A DNA stretch of 64,000 nucleotides from an uncultured Clostridia bacterium (GCA_946220865.1 CAMJYM010000007.1:1959-65958); one strand, 5' to 3'. Shown: positions 1 through 17,595, counted from the first letter of the stretch. Program-made: numbers and translations. Notes: generated from the sequence alone by a model not told the origin.

Positions 1-114
1 TGGCCTGCCTCCGAAAATTTATCGCTCTGGTGTTCTGGCGCTAGCTCTCCCCTGCTCCAGCTTCGGTCGCTGCTGCCGGAAAAGTCTTTGTCTGACGTTC
101 CGCCGCGTTATCTC

Positions 115-2661
115 TCAGTCTCCGCTGAGAATTTCAAGTTTGGCCATGCTGGCCATCATATGACGAAGCTTTCCGTCAAATTCAATGCTGAGTACGACAT
201 CGCCTGAAAGTTTTTCGTTTTTTCTGACTTCGCCCACTCCATAGCGTGCATGGCGGACCCTGGCGCCTGCTTTCAGCTCCCGCAACTCTTCAAAAGTCGC
301 CTGCCCTTCTTCTTTTGGACTTGGAACGGCGGCCGGTCGGGCAAAAAGCGGTGCTTTTCGCGGGGCAAAGAAGCTGCTGTGCCCGGTTGAGTCAATTGAG
401 CCTGAGCCTGCCGATGTATTCGATGGCGTTTCGCGATATTCCGTGACCCGACCTCGGGAGAAGCCGCTGAGCGTAGATTTCTGACCGTGGTAAGGAGCTT
501 CTGTGAAAGCATAGGACTCATCGTCGTCCCAGTGCTGGACTTCACCATCTCCCCGGCGAGAACCCCCGTGTTCTTCAACAAGCTCATCTGGAATTTCGCT
601 GAGGAAACGTGAGACAGGATTGTACTGCGTCGAACCATAGAGCAGACGGCTGCGGGCCGCCGTGATGGAAAGGCGTTTTTTAGCCCGGGTAATGGCCACA
701 TAGGCAAGTCTGCGCTCTTCTTCCAGCTCCTCCGGCTGATCCAGAACGCGATAGCCCGGGAAAAGTCCTTCCTCTGCACCAATCAGAAAAACCGCCTCAA
801 ATTCGAGACCTTTGGCACTGTGAATGGTCATGAGGGAAACAGCATCTGCTCCTTCTTCATTATCCAGATCAGAGTAAAGGGTCGCCCGCTCCAGGAACGC
901 CTGGTTCTTCTCTGCAAGGCTCTCCCTTTGCACTCCTGCTTCCAGATTATCCGGGAGGAGATCCCGGCTGTAAGGATTTTCCTCTCCCCAGTCAGCCATC
1001 TGTTGCAGCTGCCGCAATTCTTCCTCCAGACGATGCTCAAATTCCAGGGCATCCGAACGCAGCTCACGAAGGTTTTCCAGACGGTTCTCCCCGTCCTGAC
1101 GGTCTTTTTGACGAAGCAGCTCCAGGTCATGTTCCAGGCCGCTTTTTTCCTGGACGATCGCGATGAAGTCGGCATAACTGATGTCCTCTCGGGCCAGATC
1201 AGCCTGGAGTTCACGAATCAGACACGTAAAACCTGTGAGGGCGGAGGCAGCTCGGGAAAGTTCCGGGTAACTGCGACTTTGTTCCATGATTTCAAATGCG
1301 GTTTTGCCCGTTTCAGCCGCCAGATCTTCGATTCGCTCAAGGCTGACCTGACCGATACCGCGCCGCGGACTGTTGATCGCTCTCAGCAGAGCCAGGCGAT
1401 CCTCCGGTGAGGCAATAACACGCAGCCAGGCCAGGGTATCGCGAATTTCTTTTCGATCATAAAAGCGCAGGCCGCCGTAAATCTGATAAGGCACGCCCAG
1501 TTCCCTCAGGGCAAATTCCATGTTGCGCGAAAGCGCATTGACCCGGTAGAGAATGGCCATATCCTTGCACTGCAAAGGATGAGGCTCACGGCGCATCAGG
1601 CGAAGGACTTCACGGGCCACCCAGCGGGCTTCATCGTACTGGTCGCGCGCTGCATAAAAGCAAATTTTTTCTCCAGCTCCCGCCGACGTCCAGAGCCTTT
1701 TCTGCTTACGTCCCTCATTGCGGCTGATAACCGCATTGGCGGCCTCTAAAATCGACGAGCTGCTGCGGTAATTCTGTTCCAGCTTGATGAGCTTGCAGCC
1801 TTTAAAATCGTCTTCAAAATCGAGAATATTCTGCAGGTTAGCGCCGCGGAAGCTGTAAATGGACTGGTCGTCATCACCAACCACGCAGAGATTTTTATGG
1901 GCCGCGGAAAGCTGGCGCACCAGAATATATTGGGCGTGATTGGTATCCTGATACTCATCGACAAGGACATGAAGAAAGCGTTCCTGATAAGCGGCAAGAA
2001 TCTGCGGCTGTGTTCTGAAGAGTTCGACAGCGTAAGTAAGGATGTCGTCAAAATCCATGCTGTTCTGCTCTTTTAAAGCCTTTTGATAAACCTCATAGAG
2101 CAGGGCGACTTTGCGGCGAATAAAATCATTGCCGACGGAGTGGGCAAAGGCCTGGGGATCGATCAGTTTGTTTTTCGCGGCAGAAATCTGAGCATGGACA
2201 TTTTTGACAGGGAGGAGTTTATCGTCGATGTTTTGCTCTTTCATGATCCTTTTCAGAAGGTTTTGCTGGTCATCCGTATCGAGAATCGTGAAATTGCTGC
2301 CAAAGCCCAGCGCCTCGGCATGGCGGCGCAAAATGCGCAGCATCATGCTGTGAAAGGTGCCCACCCACATGCGCGCGGCCACAGGACCGAGCAGCCCGCT
2401 CAGCCTTTCTTTCATCTCTGTCGCAGCTTTATTGGTAAAAGTAATGGCCAGAATCTGCGCAGGATGAACACCGTGAGCGACCAGCCAGGCCATGCGGTGA
2501 GTGATCACACGCGTTTTACCTGAACCGGCCCCGGCCAGAATCAAAAGCGGCCCATCGCCATAGCTGACCGCCTCGCGCTGCTCAGGATTTAATCCGGCAA
2601 GAATCTTGTCTTCAACTGCCGCCAGATCCGTCACATTTATCTCAGAAAATTGTTCAGGCAT
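115..2661 (-). CDS. pcrA: ATP-dependent DNA helicase, PcrA/UvrD family
   Basis: ORF 115..2769. Walker A GAGSGKT, motif II VDEYQDTN and UvrD-type motifs run throughout, with a C-terminal ARVRHARYGVGEV Tudor-like tail. Start moved to the ATG at 2661 (MPEQFSE...), which has a GGAG-type RBS; the 36 upstream codons look non-coding. Confidence 0.9.
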   Translation of the reverse strand: MPEQFSEINVTDLAAVEDKILAGLNPEQREAVSYGDGPLLILAGAGSGKTRVITHRMAWLVAHGVHPAQILAITFTNKAATEMKERLSGLLGPVAARMWVGTFHSMMLRILRRHAEALGFGSNFTILDTDDQQNLLKRIMKEQNIDDKLLPVKNVHAQISAAKNKLIDPQAFAHSVGNDFIRRKVALLYEVYQKALKEQNSMDFDDILTYAVELFRTQPQILAAYQERFLHVLVDEYQDTNHAQYILVRQLSAAHKNLCVVGDDDQSIYSFRGANLQNILDFEDDFKGCKLIKLEQNYRSSSSILEAANAVISRNEGRKQKRLWTSAGAGEKICFYAARDQYDEARWVAREVLRLMRREPHPLQCKDMAILYRVNALSRNMEFALRELGVPYQIYGGLRFYDRKEIRDTLAWLRVIASPEDRLALLRAINSPRRGIGQVSLERIEDLAAETGKTAFEIMEQSRSYPELSRAASALTGFTCLIRELQADLAREDISYADFIAIVQEKSGLEHDLELLRQKDRQDGENRLENLRELRSDALEFEHRLEEELRQLQQMADWGEENPYSRDLLPDNLEAGVQRESLAEKNQAFLERATLYSDLDNEEGADAVSLMTIHSAKGLEFEAVFLIGAEEGLFPGYRVLDQPEELEEERRLAYVAITRAKKRLSITAARSRLLYGSTQYNPVSRFLSEIPDELVEEHGGSRRGDGEVQHWDDDESYAFTEAPYHGQKSTLSGFSRGRVTEYRETPSNTSAGSGSIDSTGHSSFFAPRKAPLFARPAAVPSPKEEGQATFEELRELKAGARVRHARYGVGEVRKNEKLSGDVVLSIEFDGKLRHMMASMAKLEILSGD

Positions 2662-2979
2662 GCCCTTACTCCCATAAAAAATCGCTATTTCATTATAGCA
2701 GACTGCGCATGCTGCATCGGCTCGTGCTTCTTTCTTATCGCCGGATTTTTTCGCCCAGGTCACCAGCATCCTACACGATCTATCTCGCTCTACACTTTCG
2801 ACTTATATTGTCTCTACATTTTTATGCAAACTTATGCAAGAGTTTTTCATCTATGGATTTTAGGCTATAATAAAAACACGAAAGGAGCAGCTGGAAAGAA
2901 AAATTTTCAGTGGCTTCTTTTTCATCATCGGACGGTCGGCCACCAGGCCGACGGCGCTCGCTAGAAGGGAGCAAAAACT

Positions 2980-3519
2980 ATGAAAATTGATATCACTGGC
3001 GTTGACATGAAGGTTGCGGATTCGCTGCAGGAAAAAATCGAAAAGAAACTGGAAAAGTTTCACCGCTATTTCGGCGACGAGGCCAGCTGCCAGGTTAAAG
3101 TTCAGCCAGAGAAAAACAAACTCCGCGTCGAACTGACGCTGAAAATTCACCGCGATATCTACCGTGCTGAGGCATTGGGCGATCAGGCTCTTGACGCTCT
3201 GGACGAGGCCACGGACAATCTGGCAGGTCAGATCCGCAAGCACAAAGCGAAGCTCAAGAAGCGCAAACATCAAAGCAAAAACATGGAGGCCTTTATCTCT
3301 GCCCTGCCCGAAGAGGACAGCCTGAGCGAAGCTGACCTGCCCAAAATCAAACGCCGCAAGAGCTTCCCGATTGAAGCCATGGATGCCGAAGAAGCAGCCC
3401 TGCAGATGGAGATGATGGAACACGATTTTCATCTCTACATCAATCCGGAAAACGGGCGTGTCAACTGCGTCTATAAACGCCGCGACGGCAACTATGGCGT
3501 ACTGGAGCCTGAGTATTGA
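2980..3519 (+). CDS. hpf: ribosome hibernation promoting factor, long HPF/RaiA type
   Basis: 179 aa. N-terminus MKIDITGVDMKV...LEKF is typical of RaiA/HPF. The C-terminal dimerisation domain is present (DFHLYINPENGRVNCVYKRRDGNYGVLEP). RBS GGGAG precedes ATG 2980. Confidence 0.9.
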   Translation: MKIDITGVDMKVADSLQEKIEKKLEKFHRYFGDEASCQVKVQPEKNKLRVELTLKIHRDIYRAEALGDQALDALDEATDNLAGQIRKHKAKLKKRKHQSKNMEAFISALPEEDSLSEADLPKIKRRKSFPIEAMDAEEAALQMEMMEHDFHLYINPENGRVNCVYKRRDGNYGVLEPEY

Positions 3520-3604
3520 TCTTTTGAAGAGAGCGCTTTCAAGGTCTTTTCTTTAAAAATGCTCGTTCGTTATTACACTGGGCACACCAGCTTATATAAA
3601 ATCA

Positions 3605-3640
3605 CCGGGGCCGTCTCCAGAAGATGGCCCCGTTTCATTT
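3605..3640 (+). terminator. rho-independent terminator after hpf
   Basis: GGGGCC (3607-3612) pairs with GGCCCC (3626-3631) and is followed by a T-rich tract. Confidence 0.6.
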
Positions 3641-3772
3641 CCAGCTATCCGCCAGGAGAAAATCCCGTATATTGCGGTGTTTAATGCCCTGGCGGCTCAT
3701 GTCAGGCTCATCCATGGAAAAGACATACTTAGGGTAATGGTCGCGAATACGGTCATAAAAACCAAACTCCCG
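3635..3772 (-). pseudogene. 3-prime remnant (45 codons) of an AAA_14/DUF4143-type ATPase gene
   Basis: Minus-strand frame reads REFGFYDRIRDHYPKYVFSMDEPDMSRQGIKHRNIRDFLLADSWK-stop. This aligns with the C-terminus of the intact ATPase at 54857..56173 (RIPDSFRKIVVVKDYMKPWQDENGIQYIGIEDFLLDEKLL). It is preceded by an in-frame TAG at 3773-3775, and an AT-rich island starts just beyond. Confidence 0.6.
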
Positions 3773-3909
3773 CTAAGCGGCCTCCTTTTACCTGGTTTTG
3801 TATTGTTGCTATTTAAACTAAATCCATCTACCAAGTTAGTCAAATGTCCAAAGTTTAAATGAGTATGTTTACTAATTGACTCTATGCAAAGTAAATCTTC
3901 CAAAATTAA

Positions 3910-3921
3910 GAAAACGTTATC
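3910..3921. promoter_or_regulatory. candidate LacI-family operator, distal copy
   Basis: GAAAACGTTATC is a CG-centred pseudo-palindrome. It is the exact reverse complement of the site at 4051-4062. Confidence 0.4.
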
Positions 3922-4002
3922 TATTTTATATTTTTGTGATATAAGATTATTTTTAAGTCCATTTCACGTCTTTTAGGCATATATTTTATTAAAAATTGGC
4001 AA

Positions 4003-4032
4003 TTGACATAAAATCGACTGAATATATATAAT
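4003..4032 (+). promoter_or_regulatory. sigma-70-type promoter for the tctCBA island
   Basis: TTGACA at 4003-4008, an 18-nt spacer, then TATAAT at 4027-4032. Confidence 0.55.
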
Positions 4033-4050
4033 CTATCCAGAACATCTTGT

Positions 4051-4062
4051 GATAACGTTTTC
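4051..4062. promoter_or_regulatory. candidate LacI-family operator, promoter-proximal copy
   Basis: GATAACGTTTTC lies about 20 nt downstream of the -10 box. It has the form of LacI/CcpA-type operators (A/T-rich arms around a central CG). Confidence 0.45.
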
Positions 4063-4129
4063 TCTTTTATAGAGCCTAATGTTGATCGCAGGAAAGGATA
4101 ATACAAAACAGAAAGGTGTAGGTAAGTTC

Positions 4130-5260
4130 ATGAGTATTAAAAGAGTTCTCATTTGCTTTCTGGTATTTTCACTGATGTTTGGCGCAGTAGCCTGTAGTGG
4201 AGATCATGCCAAGAAACAAACAGCTCAAGAAACCAAAGAAAGTAGTACTGATACAAGTGCTCAGGATAAAACAAGTGTTCCTGAGGAAGTGTCTAAGGAT
4301 GATGTGAAAACAAAGAGCTCCAATTATCCAACTAAATCAATAAAGGTGATCGTTCCTTATGGGGCTGGAGGTACAACTGACTTAGTTGGTCGGCAACTTG
4401 CCATCCAACTTGAAAAACACTTAGGTCAATCCATCACTGTGGTCAATCAGGGTGGTGCCTCAGGCTCAGTAGGTTGTAAAACCGTGCTCGATGCCCCCAG
4501 CGATGGCTACACTCTACTTTTTACAGCTGAAAGCTTAGGTACACAGCGGGTCATGCAGCTTTCTGATATGAGTTACAATGATTTCAGACCCATCATGGTC
4601 ACTGTTAATGACCCCAAAGTTATTGTTGTCAATAAAAATAGTAAATATAAGACCCTGCAAGAGCTTGTTGATGATATTAAAGCACGTCCCGGTCAAGTGA
4701 AAATGTCCTATACTGGTCCTGGTGGCAGCGGTCACGTCCAATCCCTTATTTACGAAGCAGCAGGCTTAAAAACTGCGCTAACTGCATATACTAGCGGCAG
4801 TGATTGTATTGTTGCAGTCTTGGGCGATCAGGTGGATTTTACAAATTCTAATTATTCTTCCGTAGCTAACTATATCGATAGTGGTGAATTACGGCTTCTC
4901 GCCGTTTCATCCACGAAGCCCATCGCTAAATATCCCGATGTACCCACATTTGCCTCTATCGTCCCAGAAACAGCTGATGCCTTTGAAACACCCTTTACAC
5001 CGCTCTCTTTGCTCGTAAAAAAGGATGTTCCACAAGAAATCATTGATATTCTTCGTGACGCAGCTCAAAAAGCTATCCAAGAAGAAGATTGGAAAAAGTT
5101 TGTAAAAGATAATAGCCTTGAAGAGCTTTATCTCAAATTTAAAACTGAAGATGAAATGATGTCTTTCTATAAGAATTGGGAATCCAAAGTCAGCTGGATG
5201 TTGTTTGATGCTGGAGCGGCGCCCTTAAGTCCAGAAAAATTTGATATTCCTAAACCCTGA
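4130..5260 (+). CDS. tctC: tripartite tricarboxylate transporter substrate-binding lipoprotein (TctC/Bug family)
   Basis: ORF 4079..5260. Start placed at ATG 4130 (MSIKRVL) after a GGTG/AGG RBS. Lipobox GAVAC is present, and the IKVIVPYGAGGTTDLVGRQLA motif is typical of the Bug/TctC family. Confidence 0.8.
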   Translation: MSIKRVLICFLVFSLMFGAVACSGDHAKKQTAQETKESSTDTSAQDKTSVPEEVSKDDVKTKSSNYPTKSIKVIVPYGAGGTTDLVGRQLAIQLEKHLGQSITVVNQGGASGSVGCKTVLDAPSDGYTLLFTAESLGTQRVMQLSDMSYNDFRPIMVTVNDPKVIVVNKNSKYKTLQELVDDIKARPGQVKMSYTGPGGSGHVQSLIYEAAGLKTALTAYTSGSDCIVAVLGDQVDFTNSNYSSVANYIDSGELRLLAVSSTKPIAKYPDVPTFASIVPETADAFETPFTPLSLLVKKDVPQEIIDILRDAAQKAIQEEDWKKFVKDNSLEELYLKFKTEDEMMSFYKNWESKVSWMLFDAGAAPLSPEKFDIPKP

Positions 5261-5318
5261 TAATGATTTCTTTAGCCGGAGTGCCAGAAGCACTCCGGTG
5301 CCTCGAAAGGAGACGCTC

Positions 5319-5798
5319 TTGGAACATTTTAAGAAGCTGATAAAAAATAAAGCCATGCACGAAGCGATACTCTTTTTAATGATGAGCATCGGCTTGCTCA
5401 TCCATGCCTTAACAAAGCACTATGCGCAGTCTATGCCAGACTGGAAAATGTCGCCTTATCTTTTTCCTCTTCTGGTTTCATTCTTTTTATTTTTGCTCTC
5501 CATTTCGATGCTGGCAGATGCCCGTCGCACACTGAAAATTTCAGAGGAAGAAAAGCAGGATAAGGTAAGCCCCCAACCAATTTACTGGAAAAAAATACTG
5601 ATGGTTATCATTTTGAGCATCGCATATTATATGATCATGCCCCTGATAACTTTTATTCCCTCCACAATTCTTTTCCTTGTGCTTATGTTCTTATATTTGG
5701 GGGAAAGACGTCCCTTTATCATTAGTCTTATATCTGTTCTCACGGCTGGCACTTTATATGCTTTATTTGCCATGGGACTTAATGTGATGTTGCCCTAG
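5319..5798 (+). CDS. tctB: tripartite tricarboxylate transporter small membrane subunit (TctB-like)
   Basis: Small, 4-TM-like hydrophobic protein between tctC and tctA. The probable TTG start at 5319 lies 6 nt after AAGGAG. Start is uncertain (alternative ATG at 5355). Confidence 0.6.
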   Translation: MEHFKKLIKNKAMHEAILFLMMSIGLLIHALTKHYAQSMPDWKMSPYLFPLLVSFFLFLLSISMLADARRTLKISEEEKQDKVSPQPIYWKKILMVIILSIAYYMIMPLITFIPSTILFLVLMFLYLGERRPFIISLISVLTAGTLYALFAMGLNVMLP

Positions 5799-5807
5799 GA
5801 GGAAAGC

Positions 5808-7304
5808 ATGGACCAAATAATTGGCGTACTAAAATGGATGGTGACCCCAGAATTCATCCTTTTCACTTTTTTGGGTTCGTTAGCTGGGCTCTTTGTTGGT
5901 TCGATACCCGGTCTTTCAGTGACTATGGCCACTGCCTTGCTGGTATCTGTCACCTATAGTTGGCAAACTTCAAATGCTTTAGCCACAATTATGGGAGTTT
6001 ATGTTGTAGGCGTATATTCTGGCGCATTGTCTGCCATTTTAATCAATATTCCCGGAGCACCCTCTTCCGTAGTAACTACTTTGGATGGTTATCCTCTGGC
6101 AAAGAAAGGGGAGTCCTACAAAGCGCTTAAATACGCTACAATTTATTCTTTTGTCGGCTCATTCTTTGGCCTCTTAGTCTTATGGATTGCTGCAAAACCC
6201 GTAACTAATCTAGCCCTAAAATTCACCCCAATGGATTACTTTCTCTTGGCTCTGTTTGGTCTTGCAACCGTTGGTTCTCTGACAACCAAGAGTTTTTCTA
6301 AGGGTTTAATTAGTGCCGTACTCGGATTGATGCTAAGTATGGTCGGTATTGATAGTGTCGTAGGGACTCCTCGTCTAACTTTTGGACTCCAGGAATTAAA
6401 CAGCGGTATCAGTATCGTACCTGCTCTAGTCGGCCTTTTTGGTTTCTCTGAAGTGCTTTATGTCATCTCCAACGGTACCGCTGACGGTGAAGTTGCAAAA
6501 ATTGTGAGGAGTGTCGTCAAGACCAAAGATATCCTAAAACACTTCTTTGTCTCATTATATTACTGTGTTATTGGGACCTTTGTTGGCGCTCTGCCTGGCG
6601 CTGGTGGACCCGTAGCTGCCTTCCTCGCTTATTCTGAAGCCAGAAGAATCAACAAGAAACCTTCAGTCCCCTTTGGTGAAGGTGCCGTAGAGGGAATTGT
6701 GGCGAGTGAATCTGCCAATAACGCCTGTATCGGCGGCGCCCTTATTCCGATGTTAACATTAGCCATCCCTGGCGATGCCGTGACGGCCATTATCCTTTCT
6801 GTCTTTTATGTTCACGGCTTACGTCCTGGACCCATGTTTTTGATGGAAAGTCCAGATATGTTTCAGATGATCCTTGCAGGCGGATTTTTAGGATGTTTAT
6901 TTTTGCTGCTCCTGGGCACTCTGGTAGCTCCTCGTGTCAGTAAGATCATCAATATTCCGAAAAACCTATTGCTACCTGTTGTCACTGTACTCTGTGTTAT
7001 TGGCGCATTCGCTGGTAATAATCGTATGTTTGATGTAGCTCTTATGTTTATGCTCGGGATTATCGGCTACTTCATGCGCCGTCGTGGTTACTCCGTTGCT
7101 CCTATGACTTTAGCCTTAGTTCTTGGTAATATGATGGATTCAAATTTCCGCAGAGCAATTTCTCTTGCGTCCTCAGAATCCAATAAAATGGCTGCTCTGT
7201 TTGGTCGCCCCATTACCCTGATTCTTCTATTTCTCACCGTCATCACTGTGACATTAAACATCCCTGCCGTAAAACGCAGTTTAGCAAAAATAAAAAATCA
7301 CTGA
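5808..7304 (+). CDS. tctA: tripartite tricarboxylate transporter large permease (TctA family)
   Basis: 498-aa polytopic membrane protein with TctA-like organisation (GSIPGLS..., PGAGGPVAAFLAYSEA). RBS AGGAGG precedes ATG 5808. Confidence 0.85.
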   Translation: MDQIIGVLKWMVTPEFILFTFLGSLAGLFVGSIPGLSVTMATALLVSVTYSWQTSNALATIMGVYVVGVYSGALSAILINIPGAPSSVVTTLDGYPLAKKGESYKALKYATIYSFVGSFFGLLVLWIAAKPVTNLALKFTPMDYFLLALFGLATVGSLTTKSFSKGLISAVLGLMLSMVGIDSVVGTPRLTFGLQELNSGISIVPALVGLFGFSEVLYVISNGTADGEVAKIVRSVVKTKDILKHFFVSLYYCVIGTFVGALPGAGGPVAAFLAYSEARRINKKPSVPFGEGAVEGIVASESANNACIGGALIPMLTLAIPGDAVTAIILSVFYVHGLRPGPMFLMESPDMFQMILAGGFLGCLFLLLLGTLVAPRVSKIINIPKNLLLPVVTVLCVIGAFAGNNRMFDVALMFMLGIIGYFMRRRGYSVAPMTLALVLGNMMDSNFRRAISLASSESNKMAALFGRPITLILLFLTVITVTLNIPAVKRSLAKIKNH

Positions 7305-7424
7305 TATTTCGGCAGGTAAATCAAAAAGTGAAAAGGTGAAATCTTTTTAGCCAGTAAACTTATCAACAGCGCACTGCGCATAAGGATCCACATAATAACT
7401 ATTAAATAAGAATGGGAGTTCATC

Positions 7425-8717
7425 ATGAAAATAAGCTCAAGCAAAAGTGAATTAAAAGGCCGTATTATTGTTCCTGGATCGAAAAGCCATACTATCAGAG
7501 CCATTTTGCTCTCAGCCATGGCTGAAGGCAAGTCGATCATCCACAATCCCCTGACCAGCAATGATTGCAAAAGCGCTGCACATGCCGCAAGGCTGTTTGG
7601 GGCTAAAGTTGACGAAGATGATGGCGTTTGGTATGTCCAAGGGGTCGGAAAAAATTTAAAAATTCCAGATGATATTGTCGATTGTGGTAATTCAGGCACA
7701 GCGACCATTTTCGTCATGGGTATGGCGGCTTTACTCAACGGCTACGCCGTCATCACAGGTGATGAGCAAATTCGCAGGAGACCTGTTCATTGGTTGTGTC
7801 AAGCGCTCAATGACCTGGGAGCCAAAGCCTTGATTACCCGTCCTGGGCATCAAGCTCCCCCAGTCGTCGTAGGAGGACCGATGCAAGGAGGAACTGCTGT
7901 TTTTGATGGCTTTAACTCACAGGTCGTTTCCGCTACGATGTTATCGAGTGCCATTTGTGGCAAACAGGTAGAGATTAAAGTTGAGCATCCCCTTGAAAAG
8001 CCCTATCTTCAGATGACGATTGATTGGATGAAAAAATTCGGAGTTGACCTTGTAGAAAAAAGTGATGATTATACTCACTTTATTCTCGATGGCCAAGGTG
8101 AGTATCATCCAATAGAGGCAACCGTACCGAGTGATTGGTCCGGCGTTGCCTTTCCTCTTGTTGCCTCGGTCATCACTTCTTCTGATGTCATCATTGAAGG
8201 ACTGGACTTTAACGATGCTCAAGGTGACAAAGTTGTCGTTGACCACCTGCTACGCATGGGAGCAAAAATCGAAAAAAATGAAGATAAGGGACAAATTCAC
8301 ATTATCGGTGGCACTCCTTTAAAAGCTGGTTTGGAAATTAATCTGAACGATACTCCGGACGCGCTACCAGCCCTCGCTGTAGCTGCAGCTTTTGCTGAAG
8401 GGGAAACTACCTTTACAGGCTTAGCCCACGTGAGAGTGAAGGAAACGGATAGGGTTGCTGTAATGGAAGAACAACTCGGGCTCCTTGGTGTAAAAACTCA
8501 CAGCACAAAAGACTCCATGATTGTTTACGGAGGGCAAGGCTTAAAATCTCAGGTTGTATCTAGTAAAAAAGACCATCGTATTGCTATGGCACTTGCCGTT
8601 GCTGGCCTTGCGTCTGAGGGAGTTGTAACCGTAGAGGATGCAGAGTGTGCAGATGTCTCATTCCCTGGTTTTTATCAACAAATGCAAAAACTGGGAGCAA
8701 AGTTTAAAGAATTCTAA
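7425..8717 (+). CDS. aroA: 3-phosphoshikimate 1-carboxyvinyltransferase-like enolpyruvyl transferase (EPSP synthase family)
   Basis: 430 aa with motifs PGSKSHTIRA, GNSGTA, NSQVVSA, NDTPDALPALAVAAAFAEG, RVKETDR and KDHRIAMA. The genomic context is atypical (see findings). Confidence 0.75.
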   Translation: MKISSSKSELKGRIIVPGSKSHTIRAILLSAMAEGKSIIHNPLTSNDCKSAAHAARLFGAKVDEDDGVWYVQGVGKNLKIPDDIVDCGNSGTATIFVMGMAALLNGYAVITGDEQIRRRPVHWLCQALNDLGAKALITRPGHQAPPVVVGGPMQGGTAVFDGFNSQVVSATMLSSAICGKQVEIKVEHPLEKPYLQMTIDWMKKFGVDLVEKSDDYTHFILDGQGEYHPIEATVPSDWSGVAFPLVASVITSSDVIIEGLDFNDAQGDKVVVDHLLRMGAKIEKNEDKGQIHIIGGTPLKAGLEINLNDTPDALPALAVAAAFAEGETTFTGLAHVRVKETDRVAVMEEQLGLLGVKTHSTKDSMIVYGGQGLKSQVVSSKKDHRIAMALAVAGLASEGVVTVEDAECADVSFPGFYQQMQKLGAKFKEF

Positions 8718-8761
8718 TCTGTTGTAATTATTTAAGGCCAAGTCAGGAGAGGACGTGAGAA

Positions 8762-9874
8762 ATGAAAAATAGCAAAGTTCCAACCATTGTCGATGTAGCG
8801 GAATTAGCTGGAGTATCTGTATCCACAGTCTCTCGCGTTATAAATCATAAAGAAAGCGTAAATCTTGAGGCCAAGGCCAAAGTAGAAGCAGCGATACGCG
8901 ATTTAAAATACGTTCCAAGTCTGGCGGCGCGCCGCATACGCGGCGCGTCCAGCCGGATGCTGGGGATTATCCTGCCTGATGCCAAGGATGCTTTCTTTTC
9001 AAAAGTTTTAGAATCCATTCTAAGTGCCGCTGACCAAGTTGATCTTAAAGTTATTGTGTTCAGCTGTCATGGGGATAGCCGCAATGAAGAGCTGCAGTTA
9101 AAAAAGGCTGCTTCAGCAGATCTCGTGGGATTATTATACTGTCCTTCCTCTGGAGTGGATGTCGACTTAGTTAAGTCCCTATTTAATGTGAATCTCCCTT
9201 TAATCATCCTCTATCGTAGAGGAACGATGCCCGGTGTACCTCACATTTATCTAGATAATTTTAAGGGAGGATATCTGGCCACCAAATACCTTTTACATCT
9301 TGGCCGTGAAAATATTGCATTTTTTGCTGGCTTTTGGCCTTCCGTGGAGATCGAGAGAATCAATTCTTTTCTCCCTCTGCTTGATATGCCAAACCGAGGT
9401 ATTTATACCGCTTTAGACCGTATTGCGGGATATAAACAAGCCCTGGATGAGGCCAGAATACCATTTGATGAAAAACTTATCATTGCCGCACCAGGTTTCG
9501 ACTATGAAAGTGGACTTCAAGGTATGCAGAAATTTTTATCCCGTATGCGCTCCTTTGATGCACTCATTTGCGGCAATGATGCAGTTGCCACCGGAGCCAT
9601 GCAGATTCTTTCCGAGCAACATTACCAAGTTCCTGGTCAGATTTCGATCATCGGGTACGATGATTCTCTTTTTTCACTCGTGACCAGACCTAGACTTACC
9701 ACTATTCATCAAGATGCTGCTCTAATCGGGACCGAAGCTATTGAAATGCTTATGGCCTGTATGGCAGGAGAGCATGTTGAAGATCGCGTCATTGACGTAG
9801 AACTCATTGTTAGAGAGTCTACAGCCAAAGTAAACGAAAGTGAAAATCATTCAACAAATAAAGGAACAAAATAG
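8762..9874 (+). CDS. LacI family transcriptional regulator
   Basis: N-terminal HTH TIVDVAELAGVSVSTVSRVINH followed by a periplasmic-binding-protein-like sugar-binding core. Confidence 0.9.
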   Translation: MKNSKVPTIVDVAELAGVSVSTVSRVINHKESVNLEAKAKVEAAIRDLKYVPSLAARRIRGASSRMLGIILPDAKDAFFSKVLESILSAADQVDLKVIVFSCHGDSRNEELQLKKAASADLVGLLYCPSSGVDVDLVKSLFNVNLPLIILYRRGTMPGVPHIYLDNFKGGYLATKYLLHLGRENIAFFAGFWPSVEIERINSFLPLLDMPNRGIYTALDRIAGYKQALDEARIPFDEKLIIAAPGFDYESGLQGMQKFLSRMRSFDALICGNDAVATGAMQILSEQHYQVPGQISIIGYDDSLFSLVTRPRLTTIHQDAALIGTEAIEMLMACMAGEHVEDRVIDVELIVRESTAKVNESENHSTNKGTK

Positions 9875-11266
9875 ATGCACATGCTAGCTTTGCCTCAGGG
9901 GGAAGCGAGAAGAAAGTGGGTAAAATCTCTTCTCTTGTCTTTCATTGGCCCTATCATTCTACTTATCTGGCAGCCTTTAGGCCTGAACCTGCGTCAGACA
10001 GCCGTAGTTGCTTCGGTCGTTCTGACTATCATCTGGTGGACCACCAATATCATCTCAAAGATCCCAGCTTCCTTGTTTCTGCTGCTAGTCTTTTGGCTAG
10101 GGAGTGGAGCCGGGCCAGAGGTTGTTTTCTCTTTCCCCCTGTCGGAGACTTTCCCTTTACTTATATTTACCTACCTTTTCTCTTACGCTGTCTCATCCTC
10201 TGGTTTAGTAGAAAAGCTCATTGCTCCCTGGTTACGTCGTATTGCAACCACTCCCTTAAAACTTTTATCCTGCATGTTTGCAGTGTATTTGCTGACCATT
10301 TTCCTCGTTCCTCAGCCCTTAGCTCGACTCATACTCGTAAGCTCCATCTTTGATAGTTATCTTAAAGAGACGAAGGCCTCTGTTGAAGCTATTCAGGTAT
10401 TTAACTTTACGTCTGTCCTCTATTACATTTTAGTCAACATGCTGCTCACCAGAGCTGACCTCATCATGAACAACGCTGCATTATCTTTCGCGGGTTTGAC
10501 TCGCCTGGATGACCTGACTTGGTTTCGCTACATGGGGCTCCCCTCACTCGCTGTTCTTTTAATTCTTACAACAGGCGTGTTCATAATATTCAAAAAAGAA
10601 CTTCGTGGGGTTTCGTTCGAAACTAAAGTTGGCAATAACCTCCACCTACAAAAGTTAACCGCTAAAGAAAAGAAAATTTTGGTCATCGTCATTGTTACAG
10701 TCATCTTATGGATGACCGAATCACTTCACGGTATCTCCGGGACTTGGATAACTCTGGCTTCAACAGTTGTTTTTTTTATATTAGGCGCCCTAAAATGGCA
10801 GGATCGCAGAGCTATAGACATCAAAACACTGGTCTTCTTGTCCGCTGCCTTTGCAATTGGTGGAGTTCTGAAGAATATTGGAGCAGCTGATTTAATTTTT
10901 ATCCAGCTTAAAGCCCTCTATCCCTCACCATCTTCTCCACTCTATTTTATCGTCATCATCCTCATGGCAATGGCCATGCATATGCTATTAGGCAGCAACA
11001 CAACAACATTATCTGTCGTCATACCCGGCCTGCTGGTGGCTGCAGGAGAGAATCTTGAAGCACCTGTCATTATGTTTACTGCTTATGCCAGTGTGGCTTA
11101 TCATGCCATCTTGCCCGTACACTCCGTAGCTTTTATGATTGGAGCTGAGAAAAACCTCTATCCTGCCCGCTATGTAATGCGCTTTGGCTTTTTCTCCACT
11201 CTGGTAGTGTACCTCGCTATATTGTTACTTTATTCACCTTGGTGGAGAATAATTGGAGCTTTGTAA
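9875..11266 (+). CDS. anion or organic-acid permease (ArsB/NhaD-DASS ion transporter superfamily)
   Basis: 463-aa polytopic membrane protein. Its ATG abuts the lacI-family stop (TAGATG). Family assignment is from overall topology and recollection only. Confidence 0.5.
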   Translation: MHMLALPQGEARRKWVKSLLLSFIGPIILLIWQPLGLNLRQTAVVASVVLTIIWWTTNIISKIPASLFLLLVFWLGSGAGPEVVFSFPLSETFPLLIFTYLFSYAVSSSGLVEKLIAPWLRRIATTPLKLLSCMFAVYLLTIFLVPQPLARLILVSSIFDSYLKETKASVEAIQVFNFTSVLYYILVNMLLTRADLIMNNAALSFAGLTRLDDLTWFRYMGLPSLAVLLILTTGVFIIFKKELRGVSFETKVGNNLHLQKLTAKEKKILVIVIVTVILWMTESLHGISGTWITLASTVVFFILGALKWQDRRAIDIKTLVFLSAAFAIGGVLKNIGAADLIFIQLKALYPSPSSPLYFIVIILMAMAMHMLLGSNTTTLSVVIPGLLVAAGENLEAPVIMFTAYASVAYHAILPVHSVAFMIGAEKNLYPARYVMRFGFFSTLVVYLAILLLYSPWWRIIGAL

Positions 11267-11384
11267 AGATCTAGAAAAAATGAGTTTAATGTAGCACCTG
11301 GGCTATCTTCTCACCCATCAGCGGTTATTTGTCCGACACAACCAGTTTATCAAATCATCACGCTGCCGCCGCACAAGAGAAATA

Positions 11385-11436
11385 AACAAGGAGCTTGTCT
11401 CAGAACACGAAAGTGTGGTGAGACAAGCTCCTTGTT
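11385..11436. terminator. bidirectional rho-independent terminator (gap on minus, permease on plus)
   Basis: Perfect 18-bp stem: AACAAGGAGCTTGTCTCA (11385-11402) with TGAGACAAGCTCCTTGTT (11419-11436). The loop contains a nested ACAC-GAAA-GTGT mini-hairpin. A/T runs lie on both sides. Confidence 0.75.
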
Positions 11437-11469
11437 ATTTAAAGCCTTAGTCAGAGACTTACTCAGAGA

Positions 11470-12576
<1,107 letters not shown>

Positions 12577-12910
12577 TTATCGCTGGTGAATGTACAGGTG
12601 AAAGGGGCCCTTGATGCTGACTTTCACCTCCACCTTTCATAGTGATTTCATTTATTATAACAACCACTTTCGAGATTTCCCACTGTCAATGGCGACTAAA
12701 AATGAAGGTGGGAAGGCTCAAGTTTTGCCGCTTTGACAGCCCAGGGGCCGTAGAAAGCTCATAGTTAATAGCCTCTTTCAGACCTGGCGGGCTTAACTTC
12801 GAGGTCTTTACGACTAAAACAAAATGCGACCCGACGCAAAGTTGAACCGAGGCAAAATTCAGCGGGCTAAAGATTCATAGAACAGAAACCAGGCTAAAAA
12901 AAGTCCCCAT

Positions 12911-12947
12911 CAAAAAACGGGAGCAGATCTTTTGATCCGCCCCCGTT
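12911..12947 (-). terminator. rho-independent terminator after gcvPB
   Basis: Minus strand reads AACGGGGGCGGATC-AAAA-GATCTGCTCCCGTT followed by TTTTTTG. Confidence 0.6.
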
Positions 12948-12994
12948 CATGCAGGTCACTTAAACTCGAATTCTCAAGCTGAAATTCTGAGGCT

Positions 12995-14443
12995 TTACGC
13001 CTTGAGATCGAGTTCCTTCGCGGCTTTAACCTCGTCGGGGCGACGCACCGGTGTATTGTGCGGGGCTTCAAGCAGCTTTTCAGGATTTTCCTTCGCTTCT
13101 TTGGCCACATTGATAAAGGCTTCGACCAGCTGATCCAGACCTTCACGGGTTTCCGTATCGGTCGGCTCGACCATCATGGCCTCATGCACAATGAGCGGGA
13201 AATACACGGTCGGGGGATGAACCCCGTTCTCGATGAGTCCCTTGGCCATATCCAGCGTGCTCACGCCGTATTCATCTTTCTGGCGTGTGCCCGAGATGAT
13301 GAACTCATGCATGGGCTTGCCTTCCGGATGATCGAAGTAGTCCTTCACTTTGGTGAAAATGTAGTTGGCATTGGCCACGGCTGCTTCGGAGGCATCATAC
13401 AGACCCTCAGCTCCCATGGCCAGGATGTAAGCGCAGCTGCGGAGCAGCACGGCCGTTGAGCCGTTGTAACTTCTCATGCGGCCGATCGATTTGGGTCGAT
13501 CGTTATCCCAGCTGTAGACGCCGTCTTTTTCTTGGAGCACAGGCTTGGGCAGATAGCAGGCCAGAAAATCTTTGCAGCCCACCGGACCGGCACCCGGTCC
13601 GCCGCCACCGTGCGGGGTGGAGAAGGTTTTGTGCACGTTGAGGTGGACACAGTCAAAGCCCATGTCCCCGGGACGAACGTGCAGGAGAATTGCATTCAAG
13701 TTGGCTCCGTCGTAGTACATCAGGCCACCGGCTTCGTGCACCAGATCGCAGATTTCCTTGATGTCTGTCTCAAAACGCCCCATGGTATTGGGGTTTGTCA
13801 ACATCATACCGGCGACATCATCACCGAGTTTCGACTTGAGATCCTCCATGTCGACCGTGCCCGCCTCCGTAGATTTCACCTCACGGACGACGAAGCCAGC
13901 CATCGCTGCAGAAGCAGGGTTAGTCCCATGAGCTGAGTCAGGCACGAGCATGACCTGGCGCTTATCGTCGTGACGATCACGGTGGTAGGCAGCAATCAGC
14001 ATGACGCCAGTCAGTTCGCCATGAGCGCCCGCCGCGGGCTGGAAGGTAAAGGCATCCATGCCGGTAATGTCGCAGAGCAGCTGTTCATGCAGATGGAGCA
14101 TTTTCAGCGTTCCCTGAACGGTCTCGTCAGGCTGCAGAGGGTGCAGGCGGGAAAAAGCCGGGTTCGCCACAATATCCTCATTAACTTTGGGATTGTACTT
14201 CATCGTGCAGGACCCCAGAGGATAGGGCCCGTTTTCGACGCCAAAGTTTTTCGTGGAGAGATTCGTGTAATGGCGCACCACCTGGATTTCCGAGAGGTTG
14301 GGGAAATTCAGATCTTCTTCCCTGAGCAGAGCTTTGTCATACCAGCCTTCGATATTGGAGCTCAGTCGCTCGTGATCGAAATACGTGCGGTTTCCTCCGG
14401 TCTGGGGAAGGTCAAAGATCAAATTGGTTTTATAGCTGATCAT
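12995..14443 (-). CDS. gcvPB: glycine dehydrogenase (aminomethyl-transferring) subunit 2
   Basis: 482 aa with the PLP-lysine region HLNVHKTFSTPHGGGGPG. Overlaps the gcvPA stop by 1 nt. Confidence 0.95.
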   Translation of the reverse strand: MISYKTNLIFDLPQTGGNRTYFDHERLSSNIEGWYDKALLREEDLNFPNLSEIQVVRHYTNLSTKNFGVENGPYPLGSCTMKYNPKVNEDIVANPAFSRLHPLQPDETVQGTLKMLHLHEQLLCDITGMDAFTFQPAAGAHGELTGVMLIAAYHRDRHDDKRQVMLVPDSAHGTNPASAAMAGFVVREVKSTEAGTVDMEDLKSKLGDDVAGMMLTNPNTMGRFETDIKEICDLVHEAGGLMYYDGANLNAILLHVRPGDMGFDCVHLNVHKTFSTPHGGGGPGAGPVGCKDFLACYLPKPVLQEKDGVYSWDNDRPKSIGRMRSYNGSTAVLLRSCAYILAMGAEGLYDASEAAVANANYIFTKVKDYFDHPEGKPMHEFIISGTRQKDEYGVSTLDMAKGLIENGVHPPTVYFPLIVHEAMMVEPTDTETREGLDQLVEAFINVAKEAKENPEKLLEAPHNTPVRRPDEVKAAKELDLKA

Positions 14444-15792
14444 TATTTTTCCTCCTTCCCGGCCAGTTCTTTCACCGAGGCCACGAAGCGGTCGAGATGA
14501 GCCTTGTCTTTCTTTTCCGTGGCCGCGAGGAGCCAGACATTGTTTTCCAGGACCACCCCGCCAAGGATCTTTTTGTCGAGGAGTTTCTTGTTGAGCGCTC
14601 TGAGATCCAGGCCATTTTTCGCTTTCAACGCAAATTCACGGAAATAAGGCGCATCATAGACCTCTTCAAAGAGGCCGGTCTTCAGCAATTCATCGTGCAG
14701 ATAACGGGCCTTGTCCGCCGACTGCCAGGCCGCTTCAGTCAAACCCTGACGGCCGAGCAGCGCCATGTGGATGGCGGCAGCTGTCGCCAGCAAAGCCTGC
14801 GCGGTGCAGATGTTGGAAGTCGCCTTCTCGCGGCGGATATGCTGTTCACGCGCCTGCAGGGTAAGGACGTAGGAGGTCTCGCCATCACGGTCAACAGTAC
14901 GGCCGCAGATGCGTCCGGGCATTTTGCGCACCAGTTTATCCGTGCAGCACATGTAGCCGAGGGCCGGTCCGCCGTAATTCAGAGAGGCTCCGAGCGGCTG
15001 GGCTTCACCAAAGACCACATCAAGTCCGGCTTTTCCGGGCGTCTTGAAAATGGCCATGACCACAGGATCCATCGCTGCGCAGGCCAGGGCGTCTACATCA
15101 TGAGCCGCCTTGCTGAGCTCGTCCAGATTCTCGACGACGCCATAAAAGTTGGGGCTCTGGATAATAAAAGCCGCGTAGCCACTTTCCTTCGGATAGCAGC
15201 CTGCAGAACTGCCATGCTCATTCAGCTCGCCGATTTCATATTCGAAACCATGCGAAATGAAATACGTTTTCACACACTCAATATATTCGGGATTCAGGCC
15301 AGCTGAGAGCCACACCTTGTTGGTCTTGCGCTTATCACGAATGGCCATGAGAGCCGTTTCCGCACAGGCGGAAGCGCCATCGTACATGGAAGCGTTGGCA
15401 ACATCCATACCACTCAGACGGCAGATGAAGCTCTGCCACTCGAAGGTAGCCTGCAGGGTACCCTGCGAAATTTCCTGCTGGTACGGGGTGTAGGAAGTCA
15501 GGAACTCTTCGCGGTTAATGAGGTGGTGCACCGCTGCGGGCACGACATGATCGTAAAAGCCTGCACCGAGGTAGGAATCATAGTCGTCCAGATTTTTATT
15601 CTGGCGCGCTGCTTCATCAAAAAGTTTCAGCAGGGCCTGCTCGGATAAACCTTTTTCCGCAAGATGATCCAGCTTCCGACGTTTCAGACGGAGTTCCTCC
15701 GGGATATGGCTGAAGAGTGAGGCAGGATCGATGCCCACTTCCCGGAGCATCGCGTGTCGCTCTTCAGCGGCAATGGGGACGTAATTGCTCAT
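14443..15792 (-). CDS. gcvPA: glycine dehydrogenase (aminomethyl-transferring) subunit 1
   Basis: 449 aa with typical GcvPA sequence (TSYTPYQQEISQGTLQ). Confidence 0.95.
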   Translation of the reverse strand: MSNYVPIAAEERHAMLREVGIDPASLFSHIPEELRLKRRKLDHLAEKGLSEQALLKLFDEAARQNKNLDDYDSYLGAGFYDHVVPAAVHHLINREEFLTSYTPYQQEISQGTLQATFEWQSFICRLSGMDVANASMYDGASACAETALMAIRDKRKTNKVWLSAGLNPEYIECVKTYFISHGFEYEIGELNEHGSSAGCYPKESGYAAFIIQSPNFYGVVENLDELSKAAHDVDALACAAMDPVVMAIFKTPGKAGLDVVFGEAQPLGASLNYGGPALGYMCCTDKLVRKMPGRICGRTVDRDGETSYVLTLQAREQHIRREKATSNICTAQALLATAAAIHMALLGRQGLTEAAWQSADKARYLHDELLKTGLFEEVYDAPYFREFALKAKNGLDLRALNKKLLDKKILGGVVLENNVWLLAATEKKDKAHLDRFVASVKELAGKEEK

Positions 15793-16187
15793 TATTGGGC
15801 CTCTTCACAAAGTTTCCGATAATCATCGGGTTTCAGCAGCTCATCAAGTTCAGACGGATCCGAAAGTTTCACTTTGGCAATCCAGGTATCGTAGGGTGCG
15901 CTGTTCAGCTGATCCGGTGCATCTTCAATGCTCTCGTTGGCTTCCACGATTTCGCCGGAAACAGGGGTGTAGACATCCTCAGCCATTTTCACAGATTCTA
16001 CGCTGGCGATGACGTCACCCTTGCTGAGTTCACTGCCGACAGGTTCGGCTTCAGCATAAACAAGATCGCCCAGTTCTTTCTGAGCATAATCAGAGATGCC
16101 GACGGAAGCGATATCACCCTCAACCAGAACCCACTCATGGGTTTTGGTGTAAACACGATCATTTCTCACATCAATTTCAACAGACAT
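15792..16187 (-). CDS. gcvH: glycine cleavage system protein H
   Basis: 131 aa with the lipoyl-lysine motif VESVKMAEDV. Confidence 0.95.
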   Translation of the reverse strand: MSVEIDVRNDRVYTKTHEWVLVEGDIASVGISDYAQKELGDLVYAEAEPVGSELSKGDVIASVESVKMAEDVYTPVSGEIVEANESIEDAPDQLNSAPYDTWIAKVKLSDPSELDELLKPDDYRKLCEEAQ

Positions 16188-16276
16188 TTTCTTTTCCTTT
16201 CCTGGCCCCCCGGGCCTTCCGGTCTCCCGGTACTGCGGCTTTCTGCCACTTTCCCTCTGCCCTTGGCTTCGGGGAC

Positions 16277-17395
16277 TTAACGATCTCTTTTAACAAAGGG
16301 CGCCGTGGTTTTTCTGAAGGGCTGCTCTTTGCGATGAACTTCTACCATAAATTCTTCCACCTCATCGGGGAAAGCCGGATCTACAAGAGCGTAGGCAATG
16401 CCTTTGCCGAGGGTTGGCGAGAAAGTGCCGGAGCTGATATGCCCGACTTCTTTGCCATCTGCAAACACAGGGTAGCCTTCGCGGGGAATGGCCCTTCCCT
16501 CACTGATCAGAGGGATAAGCTTATGGTGCTGGACGAGCTTACCTGCTGCAATAAAGGGACGATCCGTCTTGACGGCGAAACCGACGCCGGCATCAAGCGG
16601 ATTCAGCTCCTGACTCATTTCATGTCCATAGAGGGGCATGCCAGCTTCCAGACGCAGCGTATCTCTCGCGCCGAGACCCGCAGGTTCTGCGCCGAGCTTT
16701 ATCAGGGCATCCCAGAAACGACCCGCTTCCGCCGCAGGGAGATAGATTTCAAAGCCATCTTCACCCGTGTAACCGGTGCGGGAAATGACCATGGAAAGGT
16801 CACCTTTAAACTTGGGCTTGCGCTGCATGCGATAGCTTTTCATGCCGAGAACTATCTCGATAAATTCCGGTGCTTCCCCGAATTGCTCCAAAAGAGCTTT
16901 CATGATTTCCGGGCTCTTCGGGCCCTGAACGGCAATCTGAGCATAAAACTCAGACTCATCGGTAATCTTCACGTCCTGCACGGCCTCGGGATGCTTTTCA
17001 TAGAAGACGGGCAGAATATCATTCAAATAAGCAAAATCTTTATCTTTATTCGCCGCATTCACGACCAGCCAGTAGTCTCCGGATTCCTGGAAACGATAGG
17101 CCAGCAAATCGTCCACGGCGCCGCCGGCTTCATAGAGCAAAATAGCATAGCTGACCAATTCAGTTTTTTTACCGCTGATGTCACGGCTGAGGACCCAGTT
17201 GAGGAAGGCATCTGCGGAAGTCCCCGTTACACGGATTTCGCCCATGTGGGAAACATCAAAAATACCAACCTTTTCCCTCACGGCCAGAACTTCTTCTTTA
17301 ATGCCGGCGTATTGAATAGGCATATCAAAGCCTGCATATTCGCCCATTTTTGCATTGAGCGCAAGATGCTTATCATGCAAGGGTGTTTTTTTCAT
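16277..17395 (-). CDS. gcvT: glycine cleavage system aminomethyltransferase T
   Basis: 372 aa. MKKTPLHDKHLALNAKMGEYAGFDMP and the rest are typical GcvT. Confidence 0.95.
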   Translation of the reverse strand: MKKTPLHDKHLALNAKMGEYAGFDMPIQYAGIKEEVLAVREKVGIFDVSHMGEIRVTGTSADAFLNWVLSRDISGKKTELVSYAILLYEAGGAVDDLLAYRFQESGDYWLVVNAANKDKDFAYLNDILPVFYEKHPEAVQDVKITDESEFYAQIAVQGPKSPEIMKALLEQFGEAPEFIEIVLGMKSYRMQRKPKFKGDLSMVISRTGYTGEDGFEIYLPAAEAGRFWDALIKLGAEPAGLGARDTLRLEAGMPLYGHEMSQELNPLDAGVGFAVKTDRPFIAAGKLVQHHKLIPLISEGRAIPREGYPVFADGKEVGHISSGTFSPTLGKGIAYALVDPAFPDEVEEFMVEVHRKEQPFRKTTAPFVKRDR

Positions 17396-17400
17396 GCTAA

Positions 17401-17480: not shown

Positions 17481-17595
17481 ATTTTAACATTAAAAGCGAA
17501 TAAAAAAAGCCAATAAAAAAGCGACCGTCTAAAAGAGATGGCATTTTTATCTGCAGAAATAAAAATATCATCGCTGAGGGGCCCGTTTTTACACT

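Follow-up and report, generated by a model that had tools for sequence, protein, structure and literature searches.

The subject of this study is a stretch of 64,000 nucleotides from an uncultured Clostridia bacterium of gut type (GCA_946220865.1, CAMJYM010000007.1:1959-65958; hereafter the window) and, within it, an AT-rich island of six co-oriented genes. These encode the three components of a tripartite tricarboxylate transporter (TTT), namely TctC, TctB, and TctA, followed by an enzyme of the 5-enolpyruvylshikimate 3-phosphate (EPSP) synthase family (EPSPS, the product of aroA), a LacI-family repressor, and an anion permease of the DASS family. An earlier annotation made from the nucleotides alone (the sequence-only reading) had taken them for a horizontally acquired module for uptake and conversion of an organic acid. 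Herein, we describe the island and its relatives and weigh what the transporter and the enzyme may do together.

The island stands out by its composition. Between flanks with a G+C content of about 0.49-0.58, a trough extends from about 3.8 to 11.4 kb of the window, and 1-kb windows across 4-11 kb have values of 0.405-0.452. For the island as a whole (3775-11379) the G+C content is 0.430, versus 0.528 in the window's core parts. The G+C content at third codon positions (GC3) separates the two sets of genes with disjoint ranges, averaging 0.412 (standard deviation 0.052) for the six island genes and 0.597 (standard deviation 0.047) for 18 core genes (Mann-Whitney p=1.5e-5).

The exact edges follow from an allele in which the site is empty. 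Two contigs from two sequencing runs (L095 and L096; L numbers designate individual loci throughout) apparently belong to the same species as the window strain, judging by flanks that are 98% identical in DNA; their GAPDH is 99% identical and they lack the cassette. Their gene order is gcvT-H-PA-PB, gap, an intact gene for a 407-aa AAA_14/DUF4143 ATPase, hpf, and pcrA. When the window is compared with L095 by blastn, positions 1-3774 and 11380-20000 align at 92-98% identity and 3775-11379 is without a counterpart; 7,605 bp thus stand in place of 1,392 bp of the empty-site allele, and the replaced segment comprises most of the ATPase gene. A 45-codon C-terminal piece of that gene persists on the minus strand in the left flank, just outside the island (3638-3772; translation REFGFYDRIRDHYPKYVFSMDEPDMSRQGIKHRNIRDFLLADSWK up to the stop), and matches the C-terminus of the intact protein. 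On the right, a bidirectional terminator hairpin (11385-11436; inverted repeat I1) falls within sequence shared with the empty allele and, by that alignment, is part of the conserved gap flank outside the island. The flanking genes are, by Pfam, pcrA (minus strand), hpf (plus strand), and gap (minus strand). In a relative with 87% identical GAPDH, gap, hpf, and pcrA are contiguous with no cassette between them, and in L101, from an independent sample, the cassette occupies the identical position between hpf and gap. Since L095 and L096 are empty and L101 is occupied, both alleles evidently circulate.

No target-site duplication or terminal repeats were found at the clean junctions (alignment to the empty allele; repeat scan). 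Within the island there is neither an integrase nor a transposase, the six genes being its whole content. The cassette was also not found in a plasmid collection, where the DNA match was only 145 bp in TctA and matches to aroA reached at most about 34% identity.

The first gene of the operon encodes the substrate-binding protein TctC (4130-5260, plus strand; Pfam TctC, PF03401, 133 bits). Its open reading frame can also be opened at 4079; we set the start at 4130 (MSIKR...). The protein has a lipoprotein-type signal ending in Cys and a low-complexity linker, and is a probable lipoprotein; its orthologues in L001 and L002 measure 375-376 aa, and it is 64-72% identical to orthologues from Sphaerochaeta and Clostridia. 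The small membrane subunit TctB (5319-5798, plus strand; PF07331, 69.5 bits) comprises 159 aa from a TTG at 5319, a start preferred to the mechanical one at 5241 on the basis of an orthologue alignment and an upstream GGAG ribosome-binding site. The large permease subunit TctA (5808-7304, plus strand; PF01970, 466 bits) is 72% identical to that of Sphaerochaeta globosa. Three adjacent genes with clear Pfam matches to TctC, TctB, and TctA place the system in the TTT family. After the EPSPS gene (7425-8717, plus strand) comes that of the repressor (8762-9874, plus strand), which combines an N-terminal LacI helix-turn-helix (PF00356, 63.7 bits) with a periplasmic-binding-protein-like effector domain (Peripla_BP_1/3/4; PF13377, PF00532). 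Together with palindromic operators with a central CG, these features assign it to the LacI/GalR family, and it falls under every NCBIfam equivalog cut-off, the best model being RbsR (190 bits versus 382). The start codon of the last gene (9875-11266, plus strand) abuts the stop codon of lacI. Its product is, by its scores, a distant member of the DASS family, with 72.3 bits for PF00939 (Na_sulph_symp; cut-off 27) and 64.6 bits for TIGR00785 (cut-off 198.6).

Upstream of these genes lies a promoter of sigma-70 type (4003-4032, plus strand) in which TTGACA (4003-4008) and TATAAT (4027-4032) are separated by 18 nt; no other 12/12 consensus match occurs in positions 3400-11600. Two predicted LacI-type operators bracket it. 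The distal one, O1 (3909-3921; AGAAAACGTTATC), forms one arm of a 13-nt perfect inverted repeat and precedes the -35 box by about 90 bp; the proximal one, O2 (4051-4063; GATAACGTTTTCT), follows about 20 nt 3' of the -10 box. Both (GAAAACGTTATC and GATAACGTTTTC) are half-palindromic with a central CG, and their centers are 141 bp apart, a spacing probably compatible with repression by looping. With one mismatch allowed, the motif GAWAACGTTWTC has two matches only in the 64 kb, namely O1 and O2; no sites of a wider regulon were found in the window at that threshold, and a two-mismatch site lies at 15260. We found no convincing internal promoter or terminator in the interior of the operon, and an Rfam scan of the 64 kb returned no riboswitch, T-box, or other family.

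In these respects the sequence-only reading holds up well. The A/T-shifted composition and codon choice that it described are borne out by the sliding-window and GC3 computations, and the one strong promoter, the paired operators, the six co-oriented genes, all with Pfam matches, and the truncated ATPase gene ending at 3772, now explained by its intact counterpart in the empty-site contigs, are all as it had proposed. It had drawn the island from 3773 to 11290; the island itself stands, and the alignment to the empty allele moves its edges to 3775 and 11379. The horizontal acquisition that it suspected is likewise supported. Because the site is empty in near-identical contigs, the flanks in other taxa are unrelated, and the composition is shifted, the island is best described, from these comparisons, as a horizontally acquired, strain-variable insertion.

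The differing flanks come from genomes in which the six-gene block recurs. A metagenome-assembled genome of Eubacteriales (L001) has the same gene order, with an 84% identical EPSPS, adjoining an Opp/PfkB/LacI cluster, and in L002 and L003 the block, again with an 84% identical EPSPS, adjoins feoAB. Further Clostridia (L006, L008, and L013) keep the order in yet other flanks, with EPSPS at 55-61% identity. DNA similarity between the window and L002 is confined to 4323-11265, a segment that opens within tctC and closes where the DASS gene ends, at 73.5%; beyond this segment, L002 retains an operator pair upstream, 142 bp apart. Paired operators recur in L001, L002, L012, L017, and L034 at distances of 139-152 bp. 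In the sequencing run SRR11236267, we observed a cassette of the window type (L102, TctC 100% identical) as well as the 84% identical feoAB-side variant (L003), so two versions of the cassette co-occur in one community.

A sister architecture is found in L010, L012 (Angelakisella), L014, and L017, where an Opp-type ABC importer and two MmgE/PrpD genes take the place of TctCBA and the EPSPS, a divergently oriented LacI gene, and the DASS permease are retained. Paired GAAAACGTTTTC-like sites lie 139-144 bp apart in L012 and L017, and operator pairs are thus kept upstream of both transporter variants. EPSPS together with one or two MmgE/PrpD proteins and an Opp-type ABC importer was also seen in L022, L046, and L063. 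That the PrpD-like enzymes of the sister cassettes dehydrate a hydroaromatic acid is pure speculation.

The enzyme encoded by the cassette belongs to an archaeal/spirochaete/clostridial clade of AroA. It scores 392.4 bits with the aroA equivalog model TIGR01356 (cut-off 287.25) and 340.9 bits with PF00275 (EPSP_synthase), covering 414 of 417 positions, and is 30% identical to AroA of Escherichia coli. We aligned 85 clade members and E. coli AroA with MAFFT and used a BLASTP alignment as a cross-check of the core residues. K22, S23, R27, G96, R124, S170, Q171, D313, K340, E341, R344, H385, and R386 (E. coli numbering), which bind shikimate 3-phosphate (S3P) and phosphoenolpyruvate (PEP) or act in catalysis in the E. 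coli structures, are conserved, and the MAFFT alignment shows that T97, Y200, and R338 are also kept in the window enzyme. By family and core residues, the cassette enzyme would be a genuine EPSP synthase, with catalysis on S3P and PEP predicted.

The window enzyme deviates from E. coli AroA at five positions: R100I, P101F, S197E, N336H, and K411V. Alignments to PDB entries had raised the suspicion that such deviations mark a new function. Essentially all 85 clade members, however, have S197E, K411V/I, and, at position 101, a residue that is aromatic or aliphatic (usually F). The same deviations occur in members that reside in aro operons, next to both 3-deoxy-D-arabino-heptulosonate 7-phosphate (DAHP) synthase and chorismate synthase (L052, L060, and L084), next to chorismate synthase (L064, L073, L078, and L086), or next to chorismate mutase (L067, L068, L076, and L080), and no active-site residue separates the cassette enzymes from these. 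Because the aro-operon members share them, we consider S197E, K411V, and P101F a trait of the clade and no sign of new function, and the suspicion was dropped.

Among solved structures, the best scores are those of 5xwb (185 bits), 3nvs (183 bits), and E. coli 1g6s (170 bits), followed by 2gg4 (CP4; 155 bits) and 1rf4 (Streptococcus pneumoniae; 146 bits). The former three are class I enzymes and the latter two class II; by score, the window enzyme is nearer to class I, and no clustering with class II was seen. All these structures are distant, at about 30-35% identity, which argues for a separate clade. It spans Clostridia, Spirochaetota, and some archaea, and its closest member among the GTDB representative genomes is 57% identical to the window enzyme.

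A telling arrangement is found in Sphaerochaeta. Five loci of this genus (L031, L032, L036, L037, and L083) share a conserved succession of CM_1 (an AroH-type chorismate mutase), EPSPS, a CxxCxxCC protein, dnaG, and rpoD. In other Sphaerochaeta the order is CM_1-TctCBA-EPSPS-LacI-DnaG-RpoD, with the transporter between the mutase and EPSPS and the repressor after EPSPS. In one of these, S. globosa Buddy (L097, 10001-15331; complete genome CP002541.1), tctA and aroA overlap by 4 nt and the LacI gene comes next. A neighbor-joining tree groups the transporter-linked Sphaerochaeta enzymes with their transporter-free sisters, not with the Clostridia cassettes, and the identity between the window and S. 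globosa is higher for TctC (66%) and TctA (72%) than for EPSPS (52%) and LacI (42%). We conclude from the tree and these identities that the transporter set came to adjoin a resident housekeeping aroA, an association for which it is difficult to account if the compound taken up does not feed the adjacent enzyme. In one locus of Sphaerochaeta type (L110), the order is CM_1-TctC-TctB-TctA-LacI and no EPSPS is detectable between TctA and LacI, perhaps through loss or a failure of detection. S. globosa Buddy, being cultured and having a complete genome, is a ready experimental system.

A complementary view is obtained by starting from the transporter. We scanned metagenomes with an alignment of TctC orthologues and retained 30 distinct loci with adequate flanks. 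In 16 of them, one or more genes of the shikimate pathway lie no more than a few genes away from TctCBA. The arrangements vary and include the one described above for Sphaerochaeta. L128, L141, and L142 have LacI<TctCBA-EPSPS-AroD-AroE; cassettes containing a DASS gene are found in L123, L136, L137, L155, and L162; and L107, L108, and L180 have AroD-AroE-EamA-EPSPS-AroC-TctCBA-IclR. The EamA-family permease gene of the latter three, located between AroE and EPSPS and upstream of AroC-TctCBA, may encode a further hydroaromatic carrier. In L151, L153, and L156, a stand-alone shikimate kinase (PF01202, 111-132 bits) lies divergently beside TctC, which is 72-74% identical to the closest query TctC (tblastn). 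Directly after TctCBA, Fusibacter ferrireducens (L020) has a fusion of CM_2 and shikimate kinase and a type I dehydroquinase, AroD, and this block is adjoined by EPSPS and a LysR gene. In the 64-kb window itself, tblastn with representatives of AroC, AroD, AroE, chorismate mutase, and DAHP synthase found no other aro genes.

Taken together, the enzyme, the Sphaerochaeta locus, and the aro genes beside orthologous transporters tie the module to the shikimate pathway. The sequence-only reading had rightly seen a LacI-controlled operon that couples uptake to an enolpyruvyl transferase; what is not supported is its separation of the module from that pathway. Its exclusion of the housekeeping pathway sits poorly with a TIGR01356 score of 392 against 287, the core residues, and the aro neighbors, and its idea of an enzyme for another imported acid finds no active-site difference from the aro-operon members to build on. 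For the transporter, the gene context suggests a hydroaromatic monocarboxylate rather than a tricarboxylate such as citrate.

On balance, we favor, as probable though far from assured, the view that the island is a horizontally spread, LacI-repressed cassette for the salvage of shikimate. Without effector, the repressor would occupy O1 and O2, probably closing a DNA loop, and keep tctC-tctB-tctA-aroA-lacI-dass off; an imported hydroaromatic compound or a product of it such as S3P would relieve the repression. Since shikimate kinase adjoins orthologous TctCBA, shikimate is the likeliest compound to be imported, and in view of the AroD and AroE neighbors, quinate or 3-dehydroshikimate is also possible. 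The lipoprotein TctC would capture the compound and TctBA import it, giving a high-affinity, binding-protein-dependent route, to which the DASS permease might add a second route by secondary transport. A shikimate kinase of the host would then yield S3P, the cassette EPSPS would join this to PEP to form EPSP, and a chorismate synthase of the host would complete the path to chorismate. In raising the level of EPSP synthase, the operon would let imported carbon pass on to chorismate; we infer this biosynthetic direction, like the ligand, the effector, the role of the DASS permease, and the host's aroK and aroC, from gene content and context.

Critically speaking, several points weigh against salvage of shikimate. 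The cassette has neither a shikimate kinase nor a chorismate synthase, so the host must supply both. Characterized members of the TTT, DASS, and MmgE/PrpD families mostly act on di- and tricarboxylates, whereas shikimate is a monocarboxylate. In the literature library searched, we found no TTT system (TctC/TctA) tied to shikimate, quinate, or EPSPS, and no LacI regulon for shikimate. The island-free strains (L095 and L096; samples SRR25035363 and SRR11236193) evidently live without the cassette. In the sample centered on TctC, 14 of the 30 loci have unrelated neighbors and no aro gene; they are compatible with a stand-alone nutrient importer and add no support. Finally, the AACGTT core of the operators is frequent among sites of the LacI family, and the likeness of operators between cassettes is thus no proof of a shared effector.

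One alternative is a module for the utilization of quinate or shikimate, mainly as a source of carbon and energy, with EPSPS only a side branch that drains some of the imported compound to chorismate. L006 and L020 lend this some color, as they add an AroE-like dehydrogenase, a type I dehydroquinase, an IclR regulator, and an AP_endonuc_2 protein, and L006 has an aldehyde dehydrogenase and a thiamine pyrophosphate enzyme upstream. The AP_endonuc_2 fold, a xylose-isomerase-like TIM barrel, is presumably also that of 3-dehydroshikimate dehydratases. However, all of these catabolic genes are missing from the window cassette, it is the biosynthetic EPSPS whose gene is most frequently kept beside the transporter, and the AroC, chorismate mutase, and shikimate kinase neighbors lead to chorismate and not to protocatechuate. 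We consider a catabolic role unlikely.

It may also be asked if the enzyme is an enolpyruvyl transferase recruited for an imported organic acid other than S3P, or for a step downstream of such an acid, so that the module would convert or degrade it by a novel route with no tie to the synthesis of aromatic amino acids. Uptake genes under a LacI repressor do resemble catabolic operons, aroK and aroC are absent from the cassette, and the characterized TTT and DASS transporters carry mostly di- and tricarboxylates; in addition, the enzyme is accompanied in relatives by MmgE/PrpD proteins and an Opp-type ABC importer, and it carries S197E and K411V. The two substitutions are nevertheless found throughout the clade, including in members that neighbor DAHP synthase, chorismate synthase, and chorismate mutase. 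No residue sets the cassette enzymes apart from these, the window enzyme scores well over the aroA equivalog cut-off, the Sphaerochaeta enzyme sits at a housekeeping locus, and the partners elsewhere are shikimate-pathway genes. These observations make a changed substrate decidedly unlikely.

A third explanation would see an additional, possibly glyphosate-tolerant EPSPS copy as the driver of the spread, by dosage or target replacement, with the transporters as passengers. The enzyme has F at the position of E. coli P101, where changes raise the glyphosate tolerance of class I enzymes, and the gene is strain-variable. P101F or a similar change is, however, present throughout the clade, housekeeping members included, and no tie to resistance elements or plasmids was found. 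The gene order with transporters and repressor is kept between phyla and at identities as low as about 50%, a sign that the genes are functionally coupled. We therefore regard this explanation as very unlikely. Least credible of all is the import of an enolpyruvyl-ether dicarboxylate (dephosphorylated EPSP or a chorismate-derived compound) on which the enzyme, whose reaction is reversible, would run backward, using phosphate and releasing PEP. This is chemically possible, and a dicarboxylate would match the substrates of characterized TTT and DASS transporters, but we are aware of no pool of such compounds in the environment, and the shikimate kinase, AroD, and AroE neighbors imply entry upstream of EPSPS and not at its product.

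The salvage of shikimate can be extended to a bolder form, which we put forward as possible but doubtful. In that form, the cassette would provide the only EPSPS of the species and bring along its own precursor importers, so that gut Clostridia and Sphaerochaeta would have the synthesis of aromatic amino acids from environmental shikimate as a strain-variable, horizontally transferable trait. TctCBA would be the first transporter of its family that is specific for shikimate, and the same may hold for the DASS permease in its own family. The MmgE/PrpD pairs that stand in for AroD and AroE in the sister cassettes could then perform a new hydroaromatic dehydratase step, e.g., from quinate to shikimate.

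Uptake of hydroaromatic compounds has precedents of a different make. In E. coli, ShiA is a shikimate permease of the MFS, and in Corynebacterium glutamicum, qsuABCD and QsuR form a quinate-shikimate system with a LysR-type regulator. As in the proposed cassette, external hydroaromatic compounds taken up by these systems can feed the common aromatic pathway, and the qsu system is regulated as well. The cassette differs in having TTT and DASS carriers instead of an MFS permease, a LacI instead of a LysR regulator, an EPSPS gene in the operon, and the form of a strain-variable island. With the citrate transporter TctCBA and the TTT systems whose binding proteins have been solved (BugD, Bug27, AdpC, and the terephthalate-binding TphC), it shares the three-component architecture. 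The best relative of the cassette TctC among these structures reaches only 132 bits (PDB), the gene neighborhood points to shikimate-pathway compounds, and TctC is predicted to be a lipoprotein of a Gram-positive-type cell. To our knowledge, substrates from the shikimate pathway have not been reported for the TTT family. An EPSPS of the same clade with the same active-site pattern is also found in orthodox aro operons, for example those of L052, L060, and L084, where DAHP synthase and chorismate synthase are its neighbors. Unlike the cassette, these operons have neither a transporter nor a LacI repressor and do not form an island.

Among human gut isolates, Anaerotruncus and Lactobacillus with the pathway variant 'As', which consists of AroK, AroA, and AroC only, have been predicted to salvage external shikimate, and 37 gut genomes were listed as apparently lacking AroA (PMC9026213). 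The chorismate auxotrophs of that study resemble the present case in that they are relatives of gut Clostridia, retain the later steps of the pathway, and would, as proposed there, draw on shikimate from outside. In the supplementary files searched, 'shikimate' occurs in the functional-role table only, in passages that are enzyme names, and the study does not remark on an accessory, uptake-linked aroA. The families of the components and the idea of shikimate salvage are thus known; the type of transporter, its tight and repeated linkage to aroA under LacI control, and an aroA that travels as a strain-variable island appear to be new.

The window holds a second and larger AT-rich island at 40000-56500, with a G+C content of about 0.36-0.46 and a GC3 of 0.38. 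It encodes an ABC importer of nucleoside type (a Bmp/PnrA binding protein, an ABC ATPase, and two BPD_transp_2 permeases) and three PNP_UDP_1 phosphorylases, and has the appearance of another acquired module for salvage. AAA_14/DUF4143 genes edge both islands, an intact one at 54857-56173 (minus strand) and the remnant at 3638-3772 (minus strand), and the two are 31% identical to each other.

The presence and class of aroA underlie predictions of aromatic amino acid auxotrophy, cross-feeding, and glyphosate sensitivity in gut and rumen bacteria. If confirmed, three points would alter such predictions: aroA can be an accessory, transporter-linked gene that varies between strains of one species; it belongs to a clade departing from E. 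coli AroA at P101, S197, and K411, three of the positions compared; and a widespread subfamily of TTT systems may be the missing shikimate importer of the predicted salvagers. The proposal offers a testable new substrate for the TTT family and, for those who model microbiomes, a possible marker of hydroaromatic cross-feeding.

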